Source of the DNA: Candidatus Poribacteria bacterium
GTDB lineage: Bacteria > Poribacteria > WGA-4E > WGA-3G
Reading direction: 5' to 3'
Assembly (NCBI GenBank): GCA_965205015.1
Contig: OZ242029.1
Span: 5,408,001-5,472,000, forward strand
Length of the DNA stretch: 64,000 bases
Made by a program: the position numbers and the translations under genes. Below the pieces are notes generated by a model. The model had not been told where the DNA came from, made no database searches, and saw only the letters and a list, made by a program, of their open reading frames with translations. Of the stretch, positions 869-54,486 are shown in pieces; position 1 is the stretch's first letter; each line of letters opens with the position of its first letter.

Positions 869-1400
869 CTACAACGGGGTTAGCAGTGCGGCAAGGTCTT
901 CTGGCAACTGAATACCGGTTTTCTGCTCAAAATTTGTAATACTTCCATATATTTGACAAAACGATCCGATGATATCTACCCCATTTTCCTGAACACGGGT
1001 TAGATCTGCTCTGGCTTTATCCCATTTTTGAAAGTGGAACCATACTAAGGCGCGACAGCAATAAGCATTGATAAAACTGGGATTCATTTGTATCGCTTCG
1101 TTATAGTTTTCTATAGCAAGGTCAAATTCGCCTTTTTGACAATAAGCACTTCCACGATTGAAATAGGCCTCAGCAAGTTTTGGGGTAAACCTTATTGCTG
1201 TGGTATAGTCTTCTATAGCAAGACCAATCTCGTATTTTTGAAAGTAAGCATTGCCCCGATTGACATAAGCGTCAACATAACAGGGATCAATCTGTAATGC
1301 TGTATTACAGTCATCAATGGCTTTGTCTACCTGACCTTTTTTGAGGTAGGCATTGCTGCGATTACTATATGCTTCGGTGCAATTGGGATCGAGTGTACTG
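869..1400 (-). pseudogene. C-terminal TPR-repeat part of a disrupted FRG-TPR gene
   Basis: The frame extends upstream of ORF 869..1087: LDPNCTEAYSNRSNAYLKKGQVDKAIDDCNTALQIDPCYVDAYVNRGNAY...EAYFNRGSAYCQKGEFDLAIENYNEAIQMNP (TPR repeats). No start codon; the junction with the IS3 fragment is approximate. Confidence 0.8.
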
Positions 1401-2031
1401 CCTCCCTACGACAGATATGTGAGGTGCTGGGTTTCACCCGAAGTAACCTCTATTATCAACCGAAGCAAGACCCGTCTGAAGACATCCTCTGCGATGAAAT
1501 GGAGGCGTTGGACCCTGCGGTATCCGACGTATGGATACAGGCGTATCACACAGCTGCTACAGCGGATGGGATACACCGTTGGGTCTAAGCGTGTTGCGCG
1601 CGTGATGAAAGCAACAAACCTATCAGTCGCAGTCAAGCGTGTCTGTCAGACCTCAACATCGCTTGACGAACCGCTGCCGTGGGTGAATCGCCTTCAGACC
1701 CTTGAGGTTTCACGATGTGATCAGGTCTCTGGGTTGGCGATATGACCTATGTCCATCTGAAAAGCAGGTTCGTGTATGTTGCTCTGCTCATGGATGTCTT
1801 TACGCGCATGATTAGAGGGTGGCATCTGAGTCAGCACTTGACGCAACCGCTGACGCTCAAACCGCTCGAAGAGGCGTTGTACCACGGCGTCCCGGAGATT
1901 CATCATTCCGATCAAGGCGTGCAGTATCTTTCAAAAGCTTATATTACCACGCTACAAGCACATGGCGTTGAGATTTCCGTCGCAGAGCGCGGACGCCCTT
2001 GGAAGAATGGATATGCTGAAAGACTCATCCG
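1401..2031 (+). mobile_element. degenerate internal fragment of an IS3-family transposase (OrfB)
   Basis: Across three frames: SLRQICEVLGFTRSNLYY / YPTYGYRRIT / WVGDMTY...MDVFTRMIRGW...HHSDQGVQY...NGYAERLIR. Two frameshifts; no terminal inverted repeats seen. Confidence 0.85.
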
Positions 2032-4649: not shown

Positions 4650-4678
4650 GGTCGGGATCCTGTAAATAGCCCCCTACG

Positions 4679-4790
4679 GGGTAGGCACAAGACCTACCCC
4701 TACGGTAGGGTAGGCACAAGACCTATTGCTACGGTAGGGTAGGCACAAGACCTATTGCTACGGTAGGGTAGGCACAAGACCTACCCCTAC
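4679..4790. repeat. tandem array of four 29-bp REP-like palindromic units
   Basis: GGGTAGGCACAAGACCTA(CCCC/TTGC)TACGGTA x4. Related units at 36243, 38041, 49715 and 54446. Confidence 0.9.
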
Positions 4791-4818
4791 ACTTTATTGA
4801 AACGCCCAAAATTTGTGA

Positions 4819-18958: not shown

Positions 18959-19002
18959 TCCTTGTCTCCTTCACTCTTACTAAACTACGGTTTCCTATTC
19001 TA

Positions 19003-19926
19003 ACCCAAGTTGCCAGTTAGTAGGTAGTTGTAAATCCATGGGACCTCCTTTATAGTGTTTTTATACATAAAAAACTCAAAGGAGTATCCCATGGACTTGA
19101 CTATTGTAGAAGTTTACACGATTTGTGACGACTTTTTAATCGCAGCAGGCCACCAAGAGCATCCCTTGGCTAAAATGTCAGATGCTGAAGTCATGACGAC
19201 CGCTCTGATTGCCGCAAGATACTTTGGCGGGAATCAACACACGGCTTGTGCCGCCTTGAAAACCCTTGGATATATTCCAAACATGTTAGGACACTCGCGA
19301 TATAATCGCAGACTTCATCGGATCCGTGGTGTGTTTCAAACGCTGTTTGAACACTTCGCAGAGATATTCAAAGCAGAGAATCCGAATCAGATTTATAGCA
19401 TTGATACGTATCCGGTTTCCGTCTGCGACCCCATTCGCATTTCACGCTCACGCTTGTATCAAGGCGAAGCCTGGCGAGGAAGGATCGCAAGTAAACATCG
19501 CTATTTTTATGGTCTCAAGGCACATCTGATGGTCACTGAAGCCGGACATATCGTTGAAGCGTTCTTCACACCGGGACGTTGCAGTGATGTGCGAGGCTTA
19601 CGGTGTTATGGGTTCGATTTACCGCCGGGAGCCGTCGTCTATGCGGATAAGGCGTATTGCGATTATGCCATCGAAGATGCTTTACAAGAAGCAAGGATTA
19701 CGTTGAAACCCTTACGCAAGAAGAACGCCAAGCGTCAATATCCACCGTGGGAAGTTTATCTGCAACACACCTATCGCAAGCGTGTTGAGACTTCAAACAG
19801 TCTCATTGAACAGTTGCTCCCTAAGTCGATTCATGCGGTGACCCCTGCTGGATTTGAGTTGAAGGTCTTTTTGTTTATCATCGCTACTAATATCAAACAA
19901 CTTTTTACATAGGTAGCAACTTGGGT
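19003..19926 (+). mobile_element. IS982-family insertion sequence, apparently intact
   Basis: Terminal IRs ACCCAAGTTGC / GCAACTTGGGT with flanks TATTCTA and TATTATA. Encodes one DDE transposase. Confidence 0.9.
19091..19912 (+). CDS. IS982-family transposase
   Basis: MSDAEVMT, YSIDTYPV, YFYGLKAHL, YADKAY, RKRVETSNS. ATG at 19091 after AAGGAG. Confidence 0.92.
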   Translation: MDLTIVEVYTICDDFLIAAGHQEHPLAKMSDAEVMTTALIAARYFGGNQHTACAALKTLGYIPNMLGHSRYNRRLHRIRGVFQTLFEHFAEIFKAENPNQIYSIDTYPVSVCDPIRISRSRLYQGEAWRGRIASKHRYFYGLKAHLMVTEAGHIVEAFFTPGRCSDVRGLRCYGFDLPPGAVVYADKAYCDYAIEDALQEARITLKPLRKKNAKRQYPPWEVYLQHTYRKRVETSNSLIEQLLPKSIHAVTPAGFELKVFLFIIATNIKQLFT

Positions 19927-20075
19927 TATTATAACACAAACACTGGGTGTCTGCAACTTTTTGAGGAGTGCCACCCGCCACCGAGCGACAGCATCTGGTA
20001 CGGGATGCACTGTTCGATGCGCAATTTCACCCGATCAAACGGCACCTGTGGCTGGGGTGGGAAAAAATCATCTTT

Positions 20076-21023
20076 CTATTGTGGATAGACATACAGATGA
20101 AACACATCGCCGGGCGCGATATCCTCACCCATCAGGCGCAAATCTTTCGATTGCTCCTGCGTGATGTCGACATGCTGGATATAGGCGTAATTCCCGCTAT
20201 AACGGAGGTCGGCGTGCGTGAACTCGATCCGCCGACCGAACCGGTTGCGGCGGTGCGGGGCAGAACGTTGCGTCCACGCGAGCCGAAACGCTGCTGGCAA
20301 CCCATCTTGGATGCGTTGACCCGCTGCTGCCCGCAATGTGAGACCGTTTACATCATAGGCAAGACCGGTAAGCGTGAGACTGTAGAGGCGTGTTGACCCT
20401 GACCAGAAATAGCCCGTCTCTGCGATTGCGGTGAACTCTACAGCGTCGTTGTGAGAGGGGTTCGCGCTCGTATCCGCGGGGATACTGCGCTCTACAGGCG
20501 TGTTGTCTATCGGTCTGCCGTCTGTCGAAGCGTTTTGATACATCAATGAGATTTCCCACGTGTTTTCACGCAACTTCAACGCGTCGGTAAAGATAAATCT
20601 GACGTTCTCGTGTCTGCCGACACCAAAACGCTGGAAATCCGATTCGTTTCGGAAGTTCAAAAAGAAGTAGATGAACTGCGGAATCCCGTTATGCGTCCAG
20701 CGGGTCGCATGGGGCGGGTGAGAGCCCGTGCTCAGGCGCACCCACCGATTCTCCCGTTCAGAACGTCTCACACGCCGAGACCTATACAAAACCTCACACG
20801 CTGCGAGTCTGAATTCCTCGCCGGCTATGTCGTCGATACCGACAGCGTGTTTCGCGGCATACGGAAAAATCAACTCGTCAATCGTGATCGCATCGGGCGT
20901 CCATGAGGGTGCAGCGGGGACAGTCTCATCAGTCAGTGGCAGGGTCCTATTGACAACCCCTTCGTCACCGCAGCCTGATAGCAATGTGATGAAAAAAAGG
21001 CACGTGAAAAAGTTGCGTAACAT
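20076..21023 (-). CDS. putative lipoprotein of unknown function
   Basis: MLRNFFTCLFFITLLSG-C lipobox and GGAGG RBS. Confidence 0.7.
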   Translation of the reverse strand: MLRNFFTCLFFITLLSGCGDEGVVNRTLPLTDETVPAAPSWTPDAITIDELIFPYAAKHAVGIDDIAGEEFRLAACEVLYRSRRVRRSERENRWVRLSTGSHPPHATRWTHNGIPQFIYFFLNFRNESDFQRFGVGRHENVRFIFTDALKLRENTWEISLMYQNASTDGRPIDNTPVERSIPADTSANPSHNDAVEFTAIAETGYFWSGSTRLYSLTLTGLAYDVNGLTLRAAAGQRIQDGLPAAFRLAWTQRSAPHRRNRFGRRIEFTHADLRYSGNYAYIQHVDITQEQSKDLRLMGEDIAPGDVFHLYVYPQ

Positions 21024-21181
21024 GATGTTGCCTCCAGTTCGGTTAGGGTGGGGGTTGTAACCTCACCTGTTGGGGTATTTCATGAGTGTGTTGCCCCGGG
21101 ATCTTCACCGCACATCGCACTATGCTGGGACGGGCTCAGATCGGTACTATCGTCGGGCACAGGCCCAGGGGTCAATATGTT

Positions 21182-21278
21182 CTTTCATATACGCACAGGT
21201 TCGATTAAAAGGTGGTGAAACGGCTTCTACAGATGCCGGAGGACACGCGTTTCAATTCCAAACGGGTTCAATGAGAAG
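21182..21278 (-). CRISPR. orphan CRISPR-like mini-array: repeat, 37-bp spacer, degenerate repeat
   Basis: Minus strand: CTTCTCATTGAACCCGTTTGGAATTGAAAC (30 bp, 21249-21278, ending in the ATTGAAAC handle), spacer 21212-21248, then CTTTTAATCGAACCTGTGCGTATATGAAAG (21182-21211, 20/30 identical). No cas genes in the window. Confidence 0.7.
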
Positions 21279-21309
21279 CCCCAAAGGCAATCTTTTAGAC
21301 GTATCCATC

Positions 21310-21504
21310 TCAAGATTTTCTATATTTTCGGATCAACGCCCCGATACCATAGCAGATCGGCACCCAGACAGCCGTTGCTATCAAATACATTGGCCATCTC
21401 TCAATCGAGTAGATGAAGCCAACAACCCATGTCACGATTGCAACCGTTTTCATCCATCTTTGCTTGAAGGCGACAAAAAGAACCACAGAAATCAGAAAAA
21501 TCAC
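21310..21504 (-). CDS. small hydrophobic membrane protein (64 aa)
   Basis: AAGGAG RBS before the GTG start, two to three hydrophobic segments and a basic C-terminus (RKYRKS). Confidence 0.55.
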   Translation of the reverse strand: MIFLISVVLFVAFKQRWMKTVAIVTWVVGFIYSIERWPMYLIATAVWVPICYGIGALIRKYRKS

Positions 21505-21570
21505 GCCAAAAAACTCCTTACGTGCTAAAGACGCTCGCGAAAAACGAGATTTATACAGGATTCGCCTGTC

Positions 21571-21655
21571 GCCTGCTAAAACCGCTTTCCACGGCGGTGG
21601 ATAGCACTCGCAACGGAGATTGTTGCGAGGTGGAAACGCTATCCAACAGGCTTAT
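21571..21655 (-). ncRNA. putative structured RNA with a three-way junction and pseudoknot
   Basis: P1 GCCUGUU/AGCAGGC, P2 GGAUAGC/GCUAUCC, P3 CUCGCAAC/GUUGCGAG, P4 ACCGC/GCGGU. The bulge UUUCCAC is complementary to the P4 loop GUGGAAA. It begins right at the predicted transcription start. Confidence 0.65.
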
Positions 21656-21660
21656 GTCGT

Positions 21661-21690
21661 ATTATACACTGTTTGCGGGGGAACCGTCAA
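21661..21690 (-). promoter_or_regulatory. near-consensus sigma70 promoter
   Basis: TTGACG-N18-TATAAT on the minus strand, with an A-rich upstream tract. Confidence 0.7.
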
Positions 21691-21705
21691 GTTTTTGTTT
21701 TATAA

Positions 21706-24700
21706 TCACTGATATGCTTCGTTGTCAAGTAAAGCCAAGTACAACTTATAGAACGCCACGCTTTCTTGAAGTCTCGATCCTGTTAACATTTCATGGAGAG
21801 AATTAATCAAACGTTCGAGAGACTTCGGATCATTCTGCGAACTGCGCAGACTTCTAAACACTTCAAGTGTTTGCTTCCTAAAGTTGTCAAATGCCACTGA
21901 ATTCTCAGCCAATTTTCCCCAATATTGTTCATCGTCAGGAAAAGATTCGATAATTCCACTATCTCCAAGAACATTGGTCGTTAACGTCCCAATGGGTAAA
22001 GCCCCATTTTCTTTCGGGCTAATATTCCCCACCGGTTTTATATGTTCAAAGTAGCCTGATACCTCCTGATTGATCGGGTGAAATAACTCCCGACAGGCTC
22101 GCCAGTGCAACTTTATCTCCTCCAACCGTTGGCTAAATCGACGTTCTTCCTCAATCGCATCCAAATCGAACTTATCAGAATTTTTATCAATGTGAACGGG
22201 GTCTTCATCTCCATTTCGATACCTATCCTGAGCTTTATCATAGGCTTCCTTGAGTTGCTTGCTAACAAGAATATCGTTAATGGTGTAGCCAGCTTCCATC
22301 AGATAAAGCACCTGGAGGCTTGGGACAGGAAAATTACCTTCGAATTCCGCTTGTGTTTTAAATCTCAAATCTTCGTCGTCATTCTCAGGTTGAGCAAAGA
22401 GATAGCGGAAAAGTCTTGTTGTGCCACCTTGTTGCTCGAATTTTAATCGGTAGTTCTCATAGTTGGGAGTGAATTCTTGATAAGGACTTGAACGCTTATG
22501 GGCATCCTTGTCAAAAGAAAAATTGGCAAAAGAAAAATTGGGCGCAACTTCATTAAAAGATTCTCTTAACATATCTCTTACAGCCCACTTGAAAGCATCA
22601 GGTTCAGCCCTGAGTAGGAGATCAATTAACTTTTCAAGCGGTGTTTCCGAAAGGACGCGCTGCCCTAAAACATGAGCTACATTTTTGTCTGAGAAATTGC
22701 GATCTGATCCTACAATTAAACCAAATGCTTGCTCGATAGCAGCGATTTCCGTTGCTACGTTGCTGAGTAAGCCATCAATCTCCGCCAACATACGCTCAAA
22801 AGTTATTGAAATCCAGTGATTAACGAGCCTATCATGATACTCCTGTTGAAGCCACTTCAGTGCCGGTTCAAGTTTATCAATATCAATAACGTCCCGATTT
22901 CGTTTATCCCTTCCAAAGATTCCTGTGCTAATCTCTTCAGTTGCAATAGCACCGTCCACGGCATTATCCGCATCTGTTTTGAGATTAGGATCCGCTGCAG
23001 AGTTCAACCCTTTCTGATTTTTTTCAATAAGGTTTTTAACCTCGCGAAGAAAATCTGACTTTGGCTTGAGTTGACAATACCCCTTGAGATTTCTCAACTT
23101 TTGGTCCAAGTCTTTACGAAATTGACGACGATACTGGTCACTATTTTTTTCAAAGACAGTACCATATGCTCCCTTAGGCGTCCATGAATGTAAATAAGAC
23201 TCAGCTTTCATCTTGGCTGTTTTGCGATCATGTGGATCAAATTTAGGAACGGAGGGGTTAATGGCGTCGTCGGTTTGAGAAATTTTTGCTCTTACATCGT
23301 CGAAAGAAACCAGTGTATTCGGGTCAGCAACACCACCTGCAGGGGGACTTTTTCTCCAGCGATCGCGAAGTATCCGAGTAAACCCTTCAACAGTAGAGGT
23401 AATGGTTGAATATTTAGGTTTCCCAGTGATCTCTACCCCAGAACTGAACATGTACTGGACAAATTCCCCACCCTGCCTCACTTGTCCAAAACGATAGTCC
23501 CGCTTTGGGACATTTGCAAGATCTGCTTCAATGCGTGCATCAATCCCAAGACTCCGAGCGAAGAGGTCCTTCGCTGCCATTTTACTAAGTTGTTCCCTCT
23601 CAAACAAACCTTCTGAGTTTACACAATTCCAGCTTTCCATATTGGTAGCAGAAAGGAATGTGGCAACGTGAAATGGGGCTTCGTATGTGTTAATGTAAGA
23701 ACCATTAGGGAACCGAACTTCATACCGCGTTTCAGGGCGTTTATAGTAGTCTAACTCAACGAGACTTGCGTAGCAGTTTGCTAACAAAATAGCCGAGTCG
23801 CCACCTAAAGCAAGTCCCTCATTATACATTGTAAAGATACCGTAAATTCGAGTATCCGCATTTCCGATGTGCCGGAAGTAATAAGCAATGTCCAACAACA
23901 TCCCGCTGCATGTTCCACCGCAGAGGGTTCCCACAAGAAACACGTTGTGTTTCTGATTATCAACATTGATTGCGCTATTGAAATGGTTCTTTAGAAATCT
24001 CTCGGCTTCGTTCTTATGATCTGGGTGTAAGAAAGCATGATATGCCTGAGTGAGTTTGGGTCTAACCGTATTATTCCATTTTTCCCAGAGCGATAAGCGC
24101 CCTGCCATTCGGAGGTTCCCGGCACCCGCACCCGCAAGCTTTACAGATTCGCTATCCAATATCCTTTTATCCAGCCATTTCGCTAGATATTTATCGTATA
24201 CCGGACTCTCTGGGTCTATTCTTTCACGGATCGGATCGGTATACGGGATAGATGTGTGGACAACATCATTAACTTCGTACGGCTTTGGCTTCAATCCTTC
24301 CTGAATTTTAGGGACGCCGCTTTCATACCAACCTTGAATACGATTCTCACCATCCAAGTGAAGATCTTTGCCATTATTCGTCTCATCGGTCTCAATGGAT
24401 ACATATCTGAAAATAGGAAGTCCTGCCTGTCCATATTCGTTAAGGTTAAGTTCCCGAAGATTCGTTAGAATTTCGACACCTGTTGTTCCTAACCCTACAT
24501 ACAACGTCGGTCTGATTTCCATATTCGCACCTCTATTTACAACGGACTTTGGGGCATTTTCAGAAGATGACTGCCCCTCTGCTTGTATAAAATTATCTTC
24601 TCCCAACACTGCTGTCTCAAATTGAAACTGTGTCATCGGTAAAAAACGACCGTCCCCTTGATTCTCAAAGTATTCCCAATGACTCGGACCTGCTTGCGTA

Positions 24701-25008
24701 TTGGCGAATATCCCATAACGCGTCGCTGTTACGTTAAGGTAAGCCTTTAACTGATCGGGACCGTCTCCGGTGACGCCCTCCCTCTTGCACTCTACAATAA
24801 CATCAAGAAGGACAGGAGGGCTTTTGCCTATATTTTCAGCCTCGATCCTATTTTTTTCCGCAATCAGCACAACATCGGCAGACCCTCGAGAACTAAAACT
24901 CTGAATTTGATGTTCGCACTTGGAATAAAAATCCCTGAATTTGGGTTCATTGAAATAGTTTACAACAACATCAACGACTTTAGCTTCCAGAGGCAGTTTC
25001 TCTTTCAT
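21706..25008 (-). CDS. PD-(D/E)xK (HsdR-N-like) nuclease fused to a divergent tubulin/FtsZ-like GTPase (Tubulin_2/FtsZl1 type) with a helical C-terminal region
   Basis: N-terminal SADVVL...IVECKR...QLKAY...YGIFAN. Tubulin-like PTLYVGLGTTG, SIETD, GAGAGNLRMAGRL, GTLCGGTCSGMLLDIAY, ANCYASLVEL. Visibly more AT-rich than neighbouring genes. Confidence 0.8.
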   Translation of the reverse strand: MKEKLPLEAKVVDVVVNYFNEPKFRDFYSKCEHQIQSFSSRGSADVVLIAEKNRIEAENIGKSPPVLLDVIVECKREGVTGDGPDQLKAYLNVTATRYGIFANTQAGPSHWEYFENQGDGRFLPMTQFQFETAVLGEDNFIQAEGQSSSENAPKSVVNRGANMEIRPTLYVGLGTTGVEILTNLRELNLNEYGQAGLPIFRYVSIETDETNNGKDLHLDGENRIQGWYESGVPKIQEGLKPKPYEVNDVVHTSIPYTDPIRERIDPESPVYDKYLAKWLDKRILDSESVKLAGAGAGNLRMAGRLSLWEKWNNTVRPKLTQAYHAFLHPDHKNEAERFLKNHFNSAINVDNQKHNVFLVGTLCGGTCSGMLLDIAYYFRHIGNADTRIYGIFTMYNEGLALGGDSAILLANCYASLVELDYYKRPETRYEVRFPNGSYINTYEAPFHVATFLSATNMESWNCVNSEGLFEREQLSKMAAKDLFARSLGIDARIEADLANVPKRDYRFGQVRQGGEFVQYMFSSGVEITGKPKYSTITSTVEGFTRILRDRWRKSPPAGGVADPNTLVSFDDVRAKISQTDDAINPSVPKFDPHDRKTAKMKAESYLHSWTPKGAYGTVFEKNSDQYRRQFRKDLDQKLRNLKGYCQLKPKSDFLREVKNLIEKNQKGLNSAADPNLKTDADNAVDGAIATEEISTGIFGRDKRNRDVIDIDKLEPALKWLQQEYHDRLVNHWISITFERMLAEIDGLLSNVATEIAAIEQAFGLIVGSDRNFSDKNVAHVLGQRVLSETPLEKLIDLLLRAEPDAFKWAVRDMLRESFNEVAPNFSFANFSFDKDAHKRSSPYQEFTPNYENYRLKFEQQGGTTRLFRYLFAQPENDDEDLRFKTQAEFEGNFPVPSLQVLYLMEAGYTINDILVSKQLKEAYDKAQDRYRNGDEDPVHIDKNSDKFDLDAIEEERRFSQRLEEIKLHWRACRELFHPINQEVSGYFEHIKPVGNISPKENGALPIGTLTTNVLGDSGIIESFPDDEQYWGKLAENSVAFDNFRKQTLEVFRSLRSSQNDPKSLERLINSLHEMLTGSRLQESVAFYKLYLALLDNEAYQ

Positions 25009-25039
25009 AAGTATCCTTCACCTTTATTTACTAAAGTTT

Positions 25040-25967
25040 ACCTAAGTTGCCACTAATCTTCAAATTGCATTTTTATATTTGTGGCGATAAGAAATAAAAA
25101 CAGTTTCAACTCAAATCCGTGGGTCTCCGTCACGGCGTGGATGGACTTGGGTAAAAGTTTTTCAACCAGACTATTAGTCACTTCAACGCGTTTCCTGTAA
25201 CGCTGCTGTAAGTATACTTCGTGAGGTGGATACTGACGCTTTGCATTCTTCTTGCGCAAGGGTTTGAACGCAATACCGACATCACCGAGGGCATCTTCAA
25301 TGGCATAGGTACAATAGGCTTTATCGGCATAAACCACCGATCCTTGCGGGAGATCAAACGTATAATATCACATGCCTACAACATCGTTGCATCCGCCCGG
25401 AGTGAAGAACGCTTCAACGATTTCACCCGTCTCGGAAACCCTCAGATGCGCCTTCAGTCCATAGAAATGCCGGCGTTTGCTGGCGATCTTGCCTCGCCAT
25501 GTTTCGCCTTGATACCGGCGACACCGAGAGATACGGATGTTATCACAGACGACGACAAGAAAGGTATCCACCGAATAGATATTATTGATGTTCTCGGTCT
25601 TCGCCGTTTCAACCAACTGTTCAAAGAGCGTCTGAAACAGCGGTCTGATCCGATGAAGTCTACGATTGTAGCGAGAGTGTCGAAGCATATTTGGAATATA
25701 TCCCAGCGTCTTCAAAGCAGCGCACGCGTTTCGGTGGTTGCCTGCGAAGTATCTCGCCGCAACGACTACCGTGGTCATGACTTCAGCATCTGTCATCTGT
25801 GTTTGTGGATGCTCTCGATGTCCGAGTGAAATTAAAAGATCGTCACAAATCGTATAAACTGCTACAATAGTTAGGTCCATGGGAGACTCCTTTGGTTTTA
25901 TCGTGATGTAAAAACTATAAAGGAGATCCCATGGATTTACAACTTTTTTATAGGTAGCAACTTAGGT
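25040..25967 (-). mobile_element. IS982-family insertion sequence with an inactivated transposase
   Basis: IRs ACCTAAGTTGC / GCAACTTAGGT. Homologous to, but diverged from, the copy at 19003. Right flank TATTCTA. Confidence 0.88.
25053..25880 (-). pseudogene. IS982 transposase with an in-frame premature TGA
   Basis: ORFs 25368..25880 and 25053..25337 share a frame (VGM*YYTFDLPQGSVVYADKAY). The stop aligns with an Arg codon of the intact copy. Confidence 0.88.
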
Positions 25968-26043
25968 TATTCTACAAAAGAGTGAACAGGCTAACAGCCT
26001 ATTCTACAGCAAATTGTCCAAACTATAGTCACTCTTAATGATA

Positions 26044-36242: not shown

Positions 36243-36315
36243 GGATAGACACAAGACCCATCTCTCGGGTAGGCACAAGACCCATCTCTCGGGTAGGCAC
36301 AAGACCTACCCCAAC
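36243..36315. repeat. three tandem REP-like units (24-bp period)
   Basis: GGGTAGGCACAAGACCCATCTCTC variants, same family as 4679-4790. Confidence 0.8.
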
Positions 36316-36350
36316 AGCAGAGACGGACTCCCTGACTGCTAACAGCCAAT

Positions 36351-37940: not shown

Positions 37941-38040
37941 GCAAACGCCTCCTTTATCAGCCATCAGCCATCAGCCGTCGGCTTTCAGTAAGAATAACTG
38001 GACAGTTATCAGTTAGACGGATATGATAAGCCTAACATCT

Positions 38041-38158
38041 CTGGGCAGCCACAAGAACTGTCGCTAAACACCTCTGGGTAGCCACAAGGGCTACCCCTAC
38101 TTCTGGGCAGCCACAAGGGCTACCCCTACTTCTGGGCAGCCACAAGGGCTACCCCTAC
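38041..38158. repeat. tandem REP-like units (29-bp period)
   Basis: TCTGGGCAGCCACAAGGGCTACCCCTACT x3 plus a degenerate copy. Confidence 0.85.
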
Positions 38159-39045
38159 TAATGACGGTAGGTCTCACCGATTAAGTTATTGGCAGCGCGG
38201 ACGGGCCGGAAAAGGGTCTGCCGTTTGGCTGGCATTTCAGCTAACAATTTCGGGTGCGGATCCCAATCGTGCCACTTGCTATTGACGGTATTGTAGCAAC
38301 TGAAAATAGCGAGTCGGTCATTTTCCGCATTCGTCCACGTGTGTGTACTATGGGTCAATGCCTCTGTGAAAAAGAGGAGGGACCCAGCCGGACACTCATA
38401 GGTATCCCAAATCGGAGAGTCCTGGCTTTGGATTGTGTCGGGTGCTGTGTAGACGGCTTTATGGCTCGCCGTAATAAACAGGGTGCCTCCCTGCCGATAT
38501 TTGACGGGATTCAGTTCCCAGACGATACGCGTTAAGCCGCTATAGCCTCTGCCGGGGATACACCGATAGAGGTGCGAATCACCGGGAAAACGGAGCATCC
38601 CGTTTCCGTTGTGGGGTCCAAAGTTTCCATCACCCGCTGTCCGATAGAACAAACTACACGATTCCATACGGAAACCGTAGCATTCCTGGCTCGACAACGC
38701 CGGATGCGCGAGAAACTCGTTGAGAAAACCGATGACATTCGGATGGTCGGCGAGCCGTTGCATAGGACCGCCGAGCGGGGAGCGTTCATGTTCGGGAATC
38801 GACTCGGGTTCGTGGCGGAGTTTGTACCCGAACTCTTGCATCTCTGCGAGCGTATCGCCCGACAACACGCCCGGCACTAAAAGCCATCCGCGCATGTCAA
38901 AGAGGTATTTCTGTTCTTGTGTCGGCGCGACGACGGGTGTCCCATCGGAGGTGGTCTCCGTGAGTTGTGCGTTATCAATGTCGAGTGCCGCCCCGAGGTT
39001 TTTATCAACAATAAACGGTTTGGTGTGATCCGTGACGGGTGCCAT
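38158..39045 (-). CDS. PhyH-like dioxygenase with an atypical metal motif
   Basis: QKYLFDMRGWL, PHNG, GGTLFITASHK, FTEALTHS. Start placed at MAPVTD. Confidence 0.75.
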   Translation of the reverse strand: MAPVTDHTKPFIVDKNLGAALDIDNAQLTETTSDGTPVVAPTQEQKYLFDMRGWLLVPGVLSGDTLAEMQEFGYKLRHEPESIPEHERSPLGGPMQRLADHPNVIGFLNEFLAHPALSSQECYGFRMESCSLFYRTAGDGNFGPHNGNGMLRFPGDSHLYRCIPGRGYSGLTRIVWELNPVKYRQGGTLFITASHKAVYTAPDTIQSQDSPIWDTYECPAGSLLFFTEALTHSTHTWTNAENDRLAIFSCYNTVNSKWHDWDPHPKLLAEMPAKRQTLFRPVRAANNLIGETYRH

Positions 39046-44474: not shown

Positions 44475-44555
44475 GAGTTCCCTCCTACACACCTGGTGAT
44501 AGTATAAGAATGCGTCGGGAATCGGAGTTCCCTCCTACACACCTGGTGATAGTAT
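44475..44555. repeat. 31-bp direct duplication containing a family-B repeat
   Basis: GAGTTCCCTCCTACACACCTGGTGATAGTAT at 44475 and 44525. Confidence 0.85.
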
Positions 44556-50833: not shown

Positions 50834-50985
50834 ATTTTTAATTTACCTTGCGGTTCGGTTAGGTGAACAAGGGATTTGATGTCCCTTTCCGTAGACCCGC
50901 TTTCCACTTCGTTACAAGCTACACATTTGAGGCCTACTTTCATTTAATCTCCTAATTTACCTTGCGATTCGGTCAGGCACAGGGG

Positions 50986-54440: not shown

Positions 54441-54445
54441 CACAG

Positions 54446-54470
54446 CGGGGCAGGCACAAGACCTGCCCCG
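54446..54470. repeat. single REP-like palindrome between convergent genes
   Basis: CGGGGCAGG-CACAAGA-CCTGCCCCG. Confidence 0.7.
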
Positions 54471-54486
54471 ACGGGTGTTGCAGGTA

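Follow-up and report, generated by a model that had tools for sequence, protein, structure and literature searches.

Do a promoter, a structured RNA, the gene of a small membrane protein and two repeats of the clustered regularly interspaced short palindromic repeats (CRISPR) type form one module when they lie together in about 510 bp? The question was raised by a stretch of 64,000 nt from a Candidatus Poribacteria genome (GenBank assembly GCA_965205015.1, contig OZ242029.1, positions 5,408,001 to 5,472,000; hereafter, the window). An earlier note, made from the letters of the sequence, had proposed a CRISPR-linked toxin-antitoxin or regulatory cassette of the CreTA type at this site. The four elements were found where that note had placed them, all co-oriented on the minus strand, and the first repeat (R1) starts exactly 31 nt past the stop codon of the open reading frame (ORF). 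The reading favored here, with a rough probability of 0.7, is that they are three unrelated things lying side by side in a 7-kb insertion that resembles a composite transposon. The region would probably be a mosaic of independent pieces carrying a relic CRISPR array, and not one toxin-antitoxin device. The host of the 7-kb island is a sponge symbiont. The features of the proposed module are listed below, in the order of transcription.

21661..21690, minus strand: sigma-70-type promoter, TTGACG-18-TATAAT, with 11/12 consensus positions
21545..21659, minus strand: structured RNA domain of 115 nt with helices P0, P1, P2, P3 and P4 and a pseudoknot, from a covariance model and covariation
21521..21533, minus strand: short hairpin CGU-CUUUAGC-ACG with a CUUUAG loop, read from the sequence
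21514..21520, minus strand: ribosome-binding site TAAGGAG, 9 nt before the GTG, read from the sequence
21310..21504, minus strand: gene of the 64-aa small membrane protein, an ORF with its GTG start at 21504
21249..21278, minus strand: R1, a type I-B repeat copy with 26/30 positions equal to the consensus, from comparison with the canonical repeat
21212..21248, minus strand: spacer of 37 nt, without a detectable target in the spacer searches
21182..21211, minus strand: R2, a degenerate distal repeat (23/30) whose first 14 nt equal the consensus and whose 3' half is decayed

Linkage of the parts and form of the repeats

A 737-nt module was searched against 175 Poribacteria genomes, to which the homologs of a neighboring tubulin-like protein had led, and relatives of the 64-aa protein were detected by six-frame tblastn in 14 of these 175 genomes. 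Twelve loci carrying the small ORF were analyzed over 8 kb on both sides. The RNA motif was found in none of them, either by blastn or with the covariance model described below, and the tubulin-like gene was also absent (0/12). Repeats were present in only one locus (G158), there 5' of the ORF, and the order of an ORF followed by a mini-array, whose conservation in relatives the earlier note had thought worth checking, was observed in 0/12. Six loci with the RNA motif (seven copies) held neither the small ORF nor repeats, and none of 15 loci with tubulin homologs held the RNA, the small ORF or repeats. These 15 distant tubulin loci were obtained by scanning with a protein alignment, the scan with a single protein having given none. 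By these genome comparisons, the elements occur independently in relatives, which is the outcome that the earlier note had itself named as speaking against its proposal.

The small protein belongs to a family of its own. Nine intact homologs of 64–116 aa could be aligned, most of them preceded by strong Shine-Dalgarno sequences, and they share the pattern MLFLP..IVF...KR.WLK..A...W..G........YLIATAIFYPI.YLI...IR. Of 5.8 billion protein clusters, a profile search picked out only 19, and these carried neither a Pfam domain nor an informative name. No match to the small protein was found in Pfam, NCBIfam or PADLOC, and the family profile had no match among the PDB sequences. A word-based protein search with the 64-aa sequence alone returned nothing, and the family was seen through the six-frame and profile searches. 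In the AlphaFold2 model, helices are predicted at residues 2–12, 16–32 and 34–63, with a mean predicted local distance difference test (pLDDT) score of 70. The neighbors of the family members are not conserved. Judged by the alignment and the model, the 64-aa ORF is a real gene of an orphan family restricted to Poribacteria, encoding a predicted helical membrane protein. The closest homologs by E-value, in loci L035 (G174, 57% identity) and L036 (G093, 42% identity), have one in-frame TGA each, at different positions, and may be pseudogenes or cases of read-through.

The two repeats agree at 20/31 positions at an offset of 67, a value that one shuffle in 300 of the 221-nt region also attained. 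At CRISPR-like offsets, the 64-kb window has 13 places with 20/31 or better, several of which fall within genes, so that the pair would carry little conviction from the window alone, and an automated repeat search of the window did not report it. The identification comes from the relatives. Positions 483–512 of the module query, corresponding to R1, match hundreds of tandem copies spaced 62–70 nt apart in the 175 genomes, and canonical arrays in other Poribacteria contain 30–46 repeat copies per 3-kb locus. Compared with the canonical 30-nt repeat, CTTTTAATCGAACCAGTTTGGAATTGAAAC, R1 has four substitutions and R2 has seven, and their start-to-start spacing of 67 nt falls inside the canonical range. 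The handle ATTGAAAC is intact at the end of R1 (21256-21249). Therefore, the repeats are genuine, since they match canonical arrays of other Poribacteria genomes. They are the only copies of this repeat in the window at up to nine mismatches.

The earlier note had guessed at a Cas6-processed repeat of type I-B or III. The repeat is type I-B, and a cas locus with the same repeat, of the sort which that note had hoped to see, was found in G133, which is among the closest relatives (its flanking genes are about 90% identical at the DNA level). There, 35 perfect repeat copies adjoin a full operon, cas6-cas8b1-cas7-cas5b-cas3-cas4-cas1b-cas2. The same order of ORF sizes was observed 5' of an array in G158, and weak Cas10-like matches lie near some arrays. 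All ORFs of at least 80 aa from the cas loci of G133 and G158, together with the Cas6 of G150, were used as tblastn queries, and no cas homolog was detected in the 64-kb window (E <= 1e-3).

No leader promoter is present in the 31 nt between the stop codon of the ORF and R1. At the mini-arrays of G158 and G162, a leader TTGA[CG]A...GGATCG[GT]GTATAAT is located about 25 nt before the first repeat. As the window unit has no leader, it could be transcribed only by read-through. Among 16 trailer ends of canonical arrays that were viewed, several keep the 5' part of the last repeat and decay in its 3' part, as R2 does, and in 4/5 genomes checked, degenerate repeats or mini-arrays stand apart from the main array. 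On this comparison of ends, R1, the spacer and R2 are built like the last unit of a canonical array. They are probably a leaderless type I-B relic, consisting of a near-intact repeat, one spacer and a degenerate terminal repeat. In the parts of their article that concern such remnants, Shmakov et al. (PMC10120712) read untargeted and unconserved mini-arrays as degraded repeats, and a degenerate distal repeat as suggesting derivation from the terminal unit of an array, duplicated or truncated. Like the degraded mini-arrays treated there, the window unit has two repeat-like sequences 37 nt apart with a degenerate distal one, no detectable target and an unconserved position. It differs from them in lying outside a CRISPR-cas locus, on an IS982-bounded insertion and directly 3' of a small ORF.

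In the type I-B CreTA system, nucleotides 1–5 and 7–11 of the spacer pair with the creT promoter beside a TTC protospacer-adjacent motif (PAM), as stated in the sections of PMC8501985 on this interaction. With this seed pattern and up to two mismatches, 51 matches of the spacer were counted in the window, with 52 expected. The match nearest the promoter (21639-21629) has two mismatches, and the PAM position before it reads ATA in place of a TTC-type motif. The longest exact match of the spacer elsewhere in the window was of 10 nt, which is chance level, and the best alignment of its 37 nt within the module reached 20/37, a value found at 31 places of the window. The exact 10-nt seed was absent from 1.78 Mb of related loci, in which 36 sites matched at 9/10 or better and about 53 were expected. 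The spacer had no exact match in IMG/VR and none at up to three mismatches in the 175 Poribacteria genomes, and no match to the 579-nt module was found in a phage collection. The window spacer has nothing in common with those of five further mini-arrays in relatives.

The structured RNA and its dispersed element

The 5' untranslated region (UTR; 21660-21505) is predicted to fold at -54.7 kcal/mol, compared with -42.15 +/- 3.59 kcal/mol for shuffled sequences (z = -3.5; equalled by 0/200 shuffles), and the region past the ORF folds no better than its shuffles (z = -0.48). Query positions 67–211 of the 737-nt module were 71–78% conserved in other Poribacteria genomes. An alignment of eight copies gave the layout, which consists of the promoter, the closing helix P0, P1, P2, P3 and then P4. 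A covariance model was built from the nested helices, leaving out the pseudoknot, and was run on 150 Poribacteria genomes. The motif was found in 66 of these 150, with at least 243 matches at E <= 1e-3, and at least 25 of them in each of G107 and G110. The window copy, which scores 108 bits, is the sole copy in the 64 kb. Further members of the family, besides the window, are located at loci L047-L097 and L112.

Covariation was analyzed over 45 copies (43 distinct). Pairing was observed in 92.3% of the cells, compared with 66.7% in shuffles, changes on both sides in 33/38 pairs, and controls in which one side was slid fell to 34–45%; because the nested helices guided the alignment, their pairing counts lean towards the model. 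The pseudoknot joins the internal loop UUUCCAC between P1 and P2 to the P3 loop GUGGAAA. It was 99% paired, with compensatory changes in 5/7 pairs, and occurs in the variants UUUCCAC/GUGGAAA, AUACGAC/GUCGUAU and UUUUCAC/GUGAAAA. This support is unbiased by the fit, because the pseudoknot helix was absent from the covariance model.

No Rfam 15 family matched positions 19000-26000 of the window at E <= 1, nor the whole 64-kb window at the gathering score, and in 24 other copies, the motif was free of any overlapping Rfam match. The Rfam motif named "Poribacteria-1" would be either a different RNA or absent from the library, no Rfam family having matched. The structured RNA is, as far as the genome counts and the library go, a Poribacteria-wide family apparently absent from Rfam.

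The promoter was evaluated in the same copies. A promoter scan of 1 kb returned two promoter-like sites, compared with 1.4 +/- 1.1 in shuffles, so that the match taken alone is not significant. A -35 box TTGAC[AG] stands at a fixed distance 5' of the RNA domain in 7/8 aligned copies from other genomes, and the promoter call is supported by this fixed position. Transcription is inferred to start near 21654.

The full-length element that contains this promoter and RNA measures ~395-490 bp. Its copies are 94–99% identical within a genome and share no conserved ORF, and they stand beside unrelated genes or none. The layout runs from a left-end hairpin with a CTTTAG loop through the promoter, the RNA domain and ~200 nt more of structured sequence to the right end, which is formed by a second CTTTAG hairpin followed by ...ATCAC. 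In the window, the homology is limited to about 21694-21550, without the end hairpins and the 3' domain, and a similarly short copy was found in G162. By this extent, the promoter and RNA of the window are one short or truncated copy of a non-coding element that is repeated and dispersed in Poribacteria genomes. The hairpin at 21521-21533 resembles the end hairpins of full-length elements, a resemblance noted by eye and going no further. The stretch 21720-21745 was considered as the left-end hairpin of the element and rejected, because the conserved C-terminal end of the tubulin-like protein is encoded there.

The element recalls the PATE-like elements, which the passages of Meers et al. (PMC10055086) that define them describe as RNA-encoding, non-autonomous IS200/IS605 elements. 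Like these, as there described, the full-length RNA elements are short, ORF-less and multi-copy, contain a structured RNA and have similar hairpins at both ends, oriented alike. These traits hold for the full-length copies in G107, G110, G172 and G150, but not for the window copy. The element differs from the PATE-like ones of that source in that its RNA comes with a promoter of its own and, among the matches listed for G150, has no TnpB gene beside it. The Y1 transposase was found in all five genomes analyzed (G107, G110, G150, G172 and G173), with 2–5 matches each, together with 35–97 matches each to the TnpB-type zinc-ribbon family PF07282, and elements of the IS200/IS605 type appear from these counts to be very abundant in these Poribacteria. 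Hairpins with a CTTTAG loop near tnpA were observed at 2/6 loci, in inconsistent orientation. The kinship with PATE-like elements is therefore left at a likeness of layout.

Three other identities were rejected for the RNA. Among the matches listed for G150, no TnpB lies within about 4 kb of the listed RNA copies (at least 4 kb separates them), and a TnpB guide RNA acting in cis was discarded. HEARO gave only a 30-bit match (gathering score 83), elsewhere in L087. A terminator or attenuator was also discarded, the U-run 3' of P3 not being conserved. Additionally, two placements of RNA-element copies were recorded. In G150, a copy lies ~370 nt past the terminal repeat of a canonical array (L112, G150:C2, 1944-2516, and G150:C2:112546-113214) and a Cas10/Cmr2-like ORF, whose 49.6 bits fall short of the cut-off, follows it after ~2 kb. 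In L057, a T-box leader (950-1229, minus strand; 103.8 bits, above the gathering score) is located directly 3' of an RNA-element copy (1501-1610, minus strand).

The island and its other genes

The module lies in an insertion with two further genes.

18980..26028, no strand: insertion of 7,058 bp with two inverted copies of the IS982 family, a 9-bp direct repeat and empty sites
21706..25008, minus strand: gene of a 1,100-aa Tubulin_2 protein, upstream of the module (Tubulin_2, E = 7.7e-39)
20076..21023, minus strand: gene of a 315-aa orphan protein, downstream of the module, with a lipoprotein-type signal LSGC, the lipobox being read by eye

The island bounded by insertion sequences (IS) that the earlier note had described was confirmed. 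IS982 copies stand on either side, and the 9-bp direct repeat TCACTCTTA is present at 18971-18979 and 26029-26037. In G141, G133 and G162, the sequences homologous to positions up to ~18983 and from ~26029 onwards abut directly. Empty-site contigs joining 18970 to 26029 were found in runs X6 and X4. X6 also has a joint close by, between 18978 and 26045, which recurs at low depth in X1, a run that otherwise contains the island. Parts of the stretch were not covered by reads in X4, X5 and X6, among them 21310-21550 in X6, and no conclusion is based on these gaps. By the joints, the island is mobile, an IS982 insertion that close relatives lack at the corresponding site. An IS982 composite transposon likewise has two inverted transposase genes around its cargo, an outer 9-bp repeat and an empty site in relatives. 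The island differs from it in that the two copies are only 71% identical and the right one is frameshifted, and in that the insert reaches ~20-55 nt past the recognizable IS homology on each side. Against NF033520, the left copy scores 170 bits and the right copy 101 bits, as a fragment below the cut-off.

The 1,100-aa Tubulin_2 protein is cargo of this mobile island. The GC content is 0.43–0.45 over its gene and about 0.50 outside. The earlier note had called the gene a nuclease-tubulin fusion. The tubulin part stands, and the nuclease part is represented by a weak match of HSDR_N_2 at the N-terminus (E = 0.0048), below the Pfam cut-off; the precomputed Pfam annotations of many homologs of the protein include PF13588. 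At least 158 relatives were found at E <= 1e-5, the named matches coming from Poribacteria, and at least 44 of them, besides the window protein, align over 77–100% of the length with 37–86% identity. The protein had no PADLOC or NCBIfam match.

Neither Pfam, NCBIfam nor PADLOC gave a match to the 315-aa protein, of which no relative was found in the 175 Poribacteria genomes (0/175). A 25-nt motif, CCTAACCGAAC... on the minus strand, is shared by 21023-21047, 50839-50863 and 50953-50977. Its first copy (21023-21047) takes in the ribosome-binding site of the lipoprotein gene, and the motif may be a common 5'-UTR or promoter-proximal element. Elsewhere in the window, tandem palindromic units of 24–29 nt (GGGTAGGCACAAGACCTACCC...) were observed in the intergenic regions 4676-4795, 36243-36320, 38040-38163 and 54445-54477. 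They look like repetitive extragenic palindromic (REP) sequences. A gene similar to a REP-associated tyrosine transposase (63 bits, cut-off 80) is located inside the I-B cas operon of G133 (L133:7156-7674). Finally, a perfect 31-nt direct repeat occurs at 44475-44505 and 44525-44555, 50 nt apart.

Possible workings and rival readings

In the reading preferred here, transcription would begin at the element promoter, near 21654, and the transcript would run on into the small ORF, because no recognizable terminator intervenes. The ORF would thus be expressed by read-through from a captured mobile promoter, which probably drives the small membrane protein gene. The transcript may go on across R1, the spacer and R2. 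The host I-B Cas6, if present as in the nearest relative, could cut R1 and leave a 5' AUUGAAAC handle. The product of the mini-array would most likely be inert, because it has no detectable target and R2 is decayed. No regulatory loop would join the three parts.

Several observations weigh against the mosaic reading. In run X6, a contig with a tubulin gene 92% alike runs through the promoter and ends in the RNA domain, at 21613, so that the joining of the tubulin gene to the RNA element predates this strain. In G158 (L040, G158:C4 7317-8157), a member of the small protein family stands 73 nt past the terminal repeat of a decayed I-B locus, which consists of a 55-aa Cas1 fragment (PF01867, E = 5e-14), a leader promoter and five repeats, of which the last is degenerate. 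With the window, 2 of 13 family loci are located beside CRISPR repeats, which by a rough estimate exceeds uniform chance (~1e-3 per locus). The only explanation offered for this adjacency is shared residence in defense or junk islands. Past the family member of G158 come the genes of a MotA/ExbB-like protein of 711 aa and an OmpA-like protein of 318 aa, and then a type ISP restriction enzyme. A pair of MotA and OmpA genes of this kind may resemble Zorya. Furthermore, in the portions of Cheng et al. (PMC8501985) that describe the haloarchaeal operons, the creT-creA operon of H. hubeiense has the same order of promoter, small gene and two-repeat mini-array, and CreA repeats are preserved in the same parts as R1, with its 8-nt handle, and R2, with its 5' part.

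These similarities bear on a rival to the mosaic, a cassette in which the small protein would be a toxin or cargo, and the mini-array, processed by Cas6, would guide Cascade to repress the promoter at 21690 in the manner of CreTA or CreR, making the host or the transposon depend on Cascade. The CreTA of haloarchaea, as presented in the same sections of PMC8501985, also has I-B repeats, two divergent copies and a small gene upstream on the same strand. The elements of the window are co-oriented with no predicted terminator between them, ATTGAAAC is kept in R1 and the first 14 nt in R2, the gene order is that of H. hubeiense, a second family member adjoins a decayed I-B array (G158), and a full I-B system that uses this repeat is encoded by the nearest relative. 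However, the seed test stood at chance, its match near the promoter lacking a TTC-type PAM, and the best alignment of the spacer in the module was equalled at 31 places of the window. In the same source, the CreTA module sits in or beside the cas operon, whereas no cas homolog was detected in the window and the neighbors here are the Tubulin_2 gene, the orphan lipoprotein gene and the IS982 copies. The arrangement is conserved in none of the 12 loci of relatives, the promoter comes from a multi-copy mobile element, and the other mini-arrays have unlike spacers. The candidate toxin is a 64-aa membrane protein and CreT, as described there, is a small RNA. Such a cassette is very improbable. If true, it would be a transposon-borne, CRISPR-dependent addiction or hijack module, and an IS982-borne one-spacer mini-array tied to the host Cascade with a CreT-like toxin or membrane effector is accordingly judged a far-fetched prospect, for which the location of the family beside decayed I-B arrays at 2/13 loci is the sole positive hint.

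It is unlikely, although less so, that the unit works as an orphan array with one spacer. Its read-through RNA would be cut by the host Cas6, and the resulting CRISPR RNA would act against an unsampled virus or rival element, or exploit Cascade on behalf of the island. R1 (26/30) has an intact handle, the 37-nt spacer fits the canonical spacing of 62–70 nt, and corresponding I-B systems and arrays are present in the nearest relatives. Mini-arrays borne by phages and prophages have been described in the pertinent parts of two reports (PMC10120712; 10.1101/2024.10.29.618823). However, the leader promoter of other arrays is missing, R1 has four substitutions and R2 is without its 3' half. No protospacer was found in IMG/VR (exact), in the 175 Poribacteria genomes (up to three mismatches) or in the phage collection. 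A role of the RNA as a dedicated riboswitch or attenuator of the small protein, or of the pair as a type I toxin-antitoxin system, would draw on the strong fold, on the UUUU that follows the P3 hairpin in the window and on the small, hydrophobic product of the ORF. Against it, the same RNA occurs at least 25 times in some genomes, in non-coding units with unrelated or no neighbors, and in none of the 12 loci of homologous ORFs. The U-run is not conserved, and the sequences of the pseudoknot and P2 vary freely with compensation, with no conserved bases of a ligand pocket. The promoter scan showed no plus-strand promoter-like site for an antisense RNA in 20900-21900. Typical type I toxins are single-helix proteins, unlike the predicted three helices of this one, which has 64–85 aa in relatives. 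This role is the least credible of the readings weighed here.

The inference of a single cassette is therefore unsupported at its core, because the elements are independent in relatives, the promoter and RNA are multi-copy, the spacer has no seed match at the promoter and the repeats have the form of a leaderless terminal unit. For the module as posed, the outcome is mostly deflationary, the CreTA idea having failed the tests that can be made at the sequence level. Two findings are worth keeping for the biology of these Poribacteria. One is an orphan family of small membrane proteins that twice adjoins decayed type I-B arrays. The other is an RNA family absent from Rfam, with a pseudoknot backed by compensatory changes, which rides with its own promoter on hairpin-ended repeat units in genomes that are also rich in TnpB.

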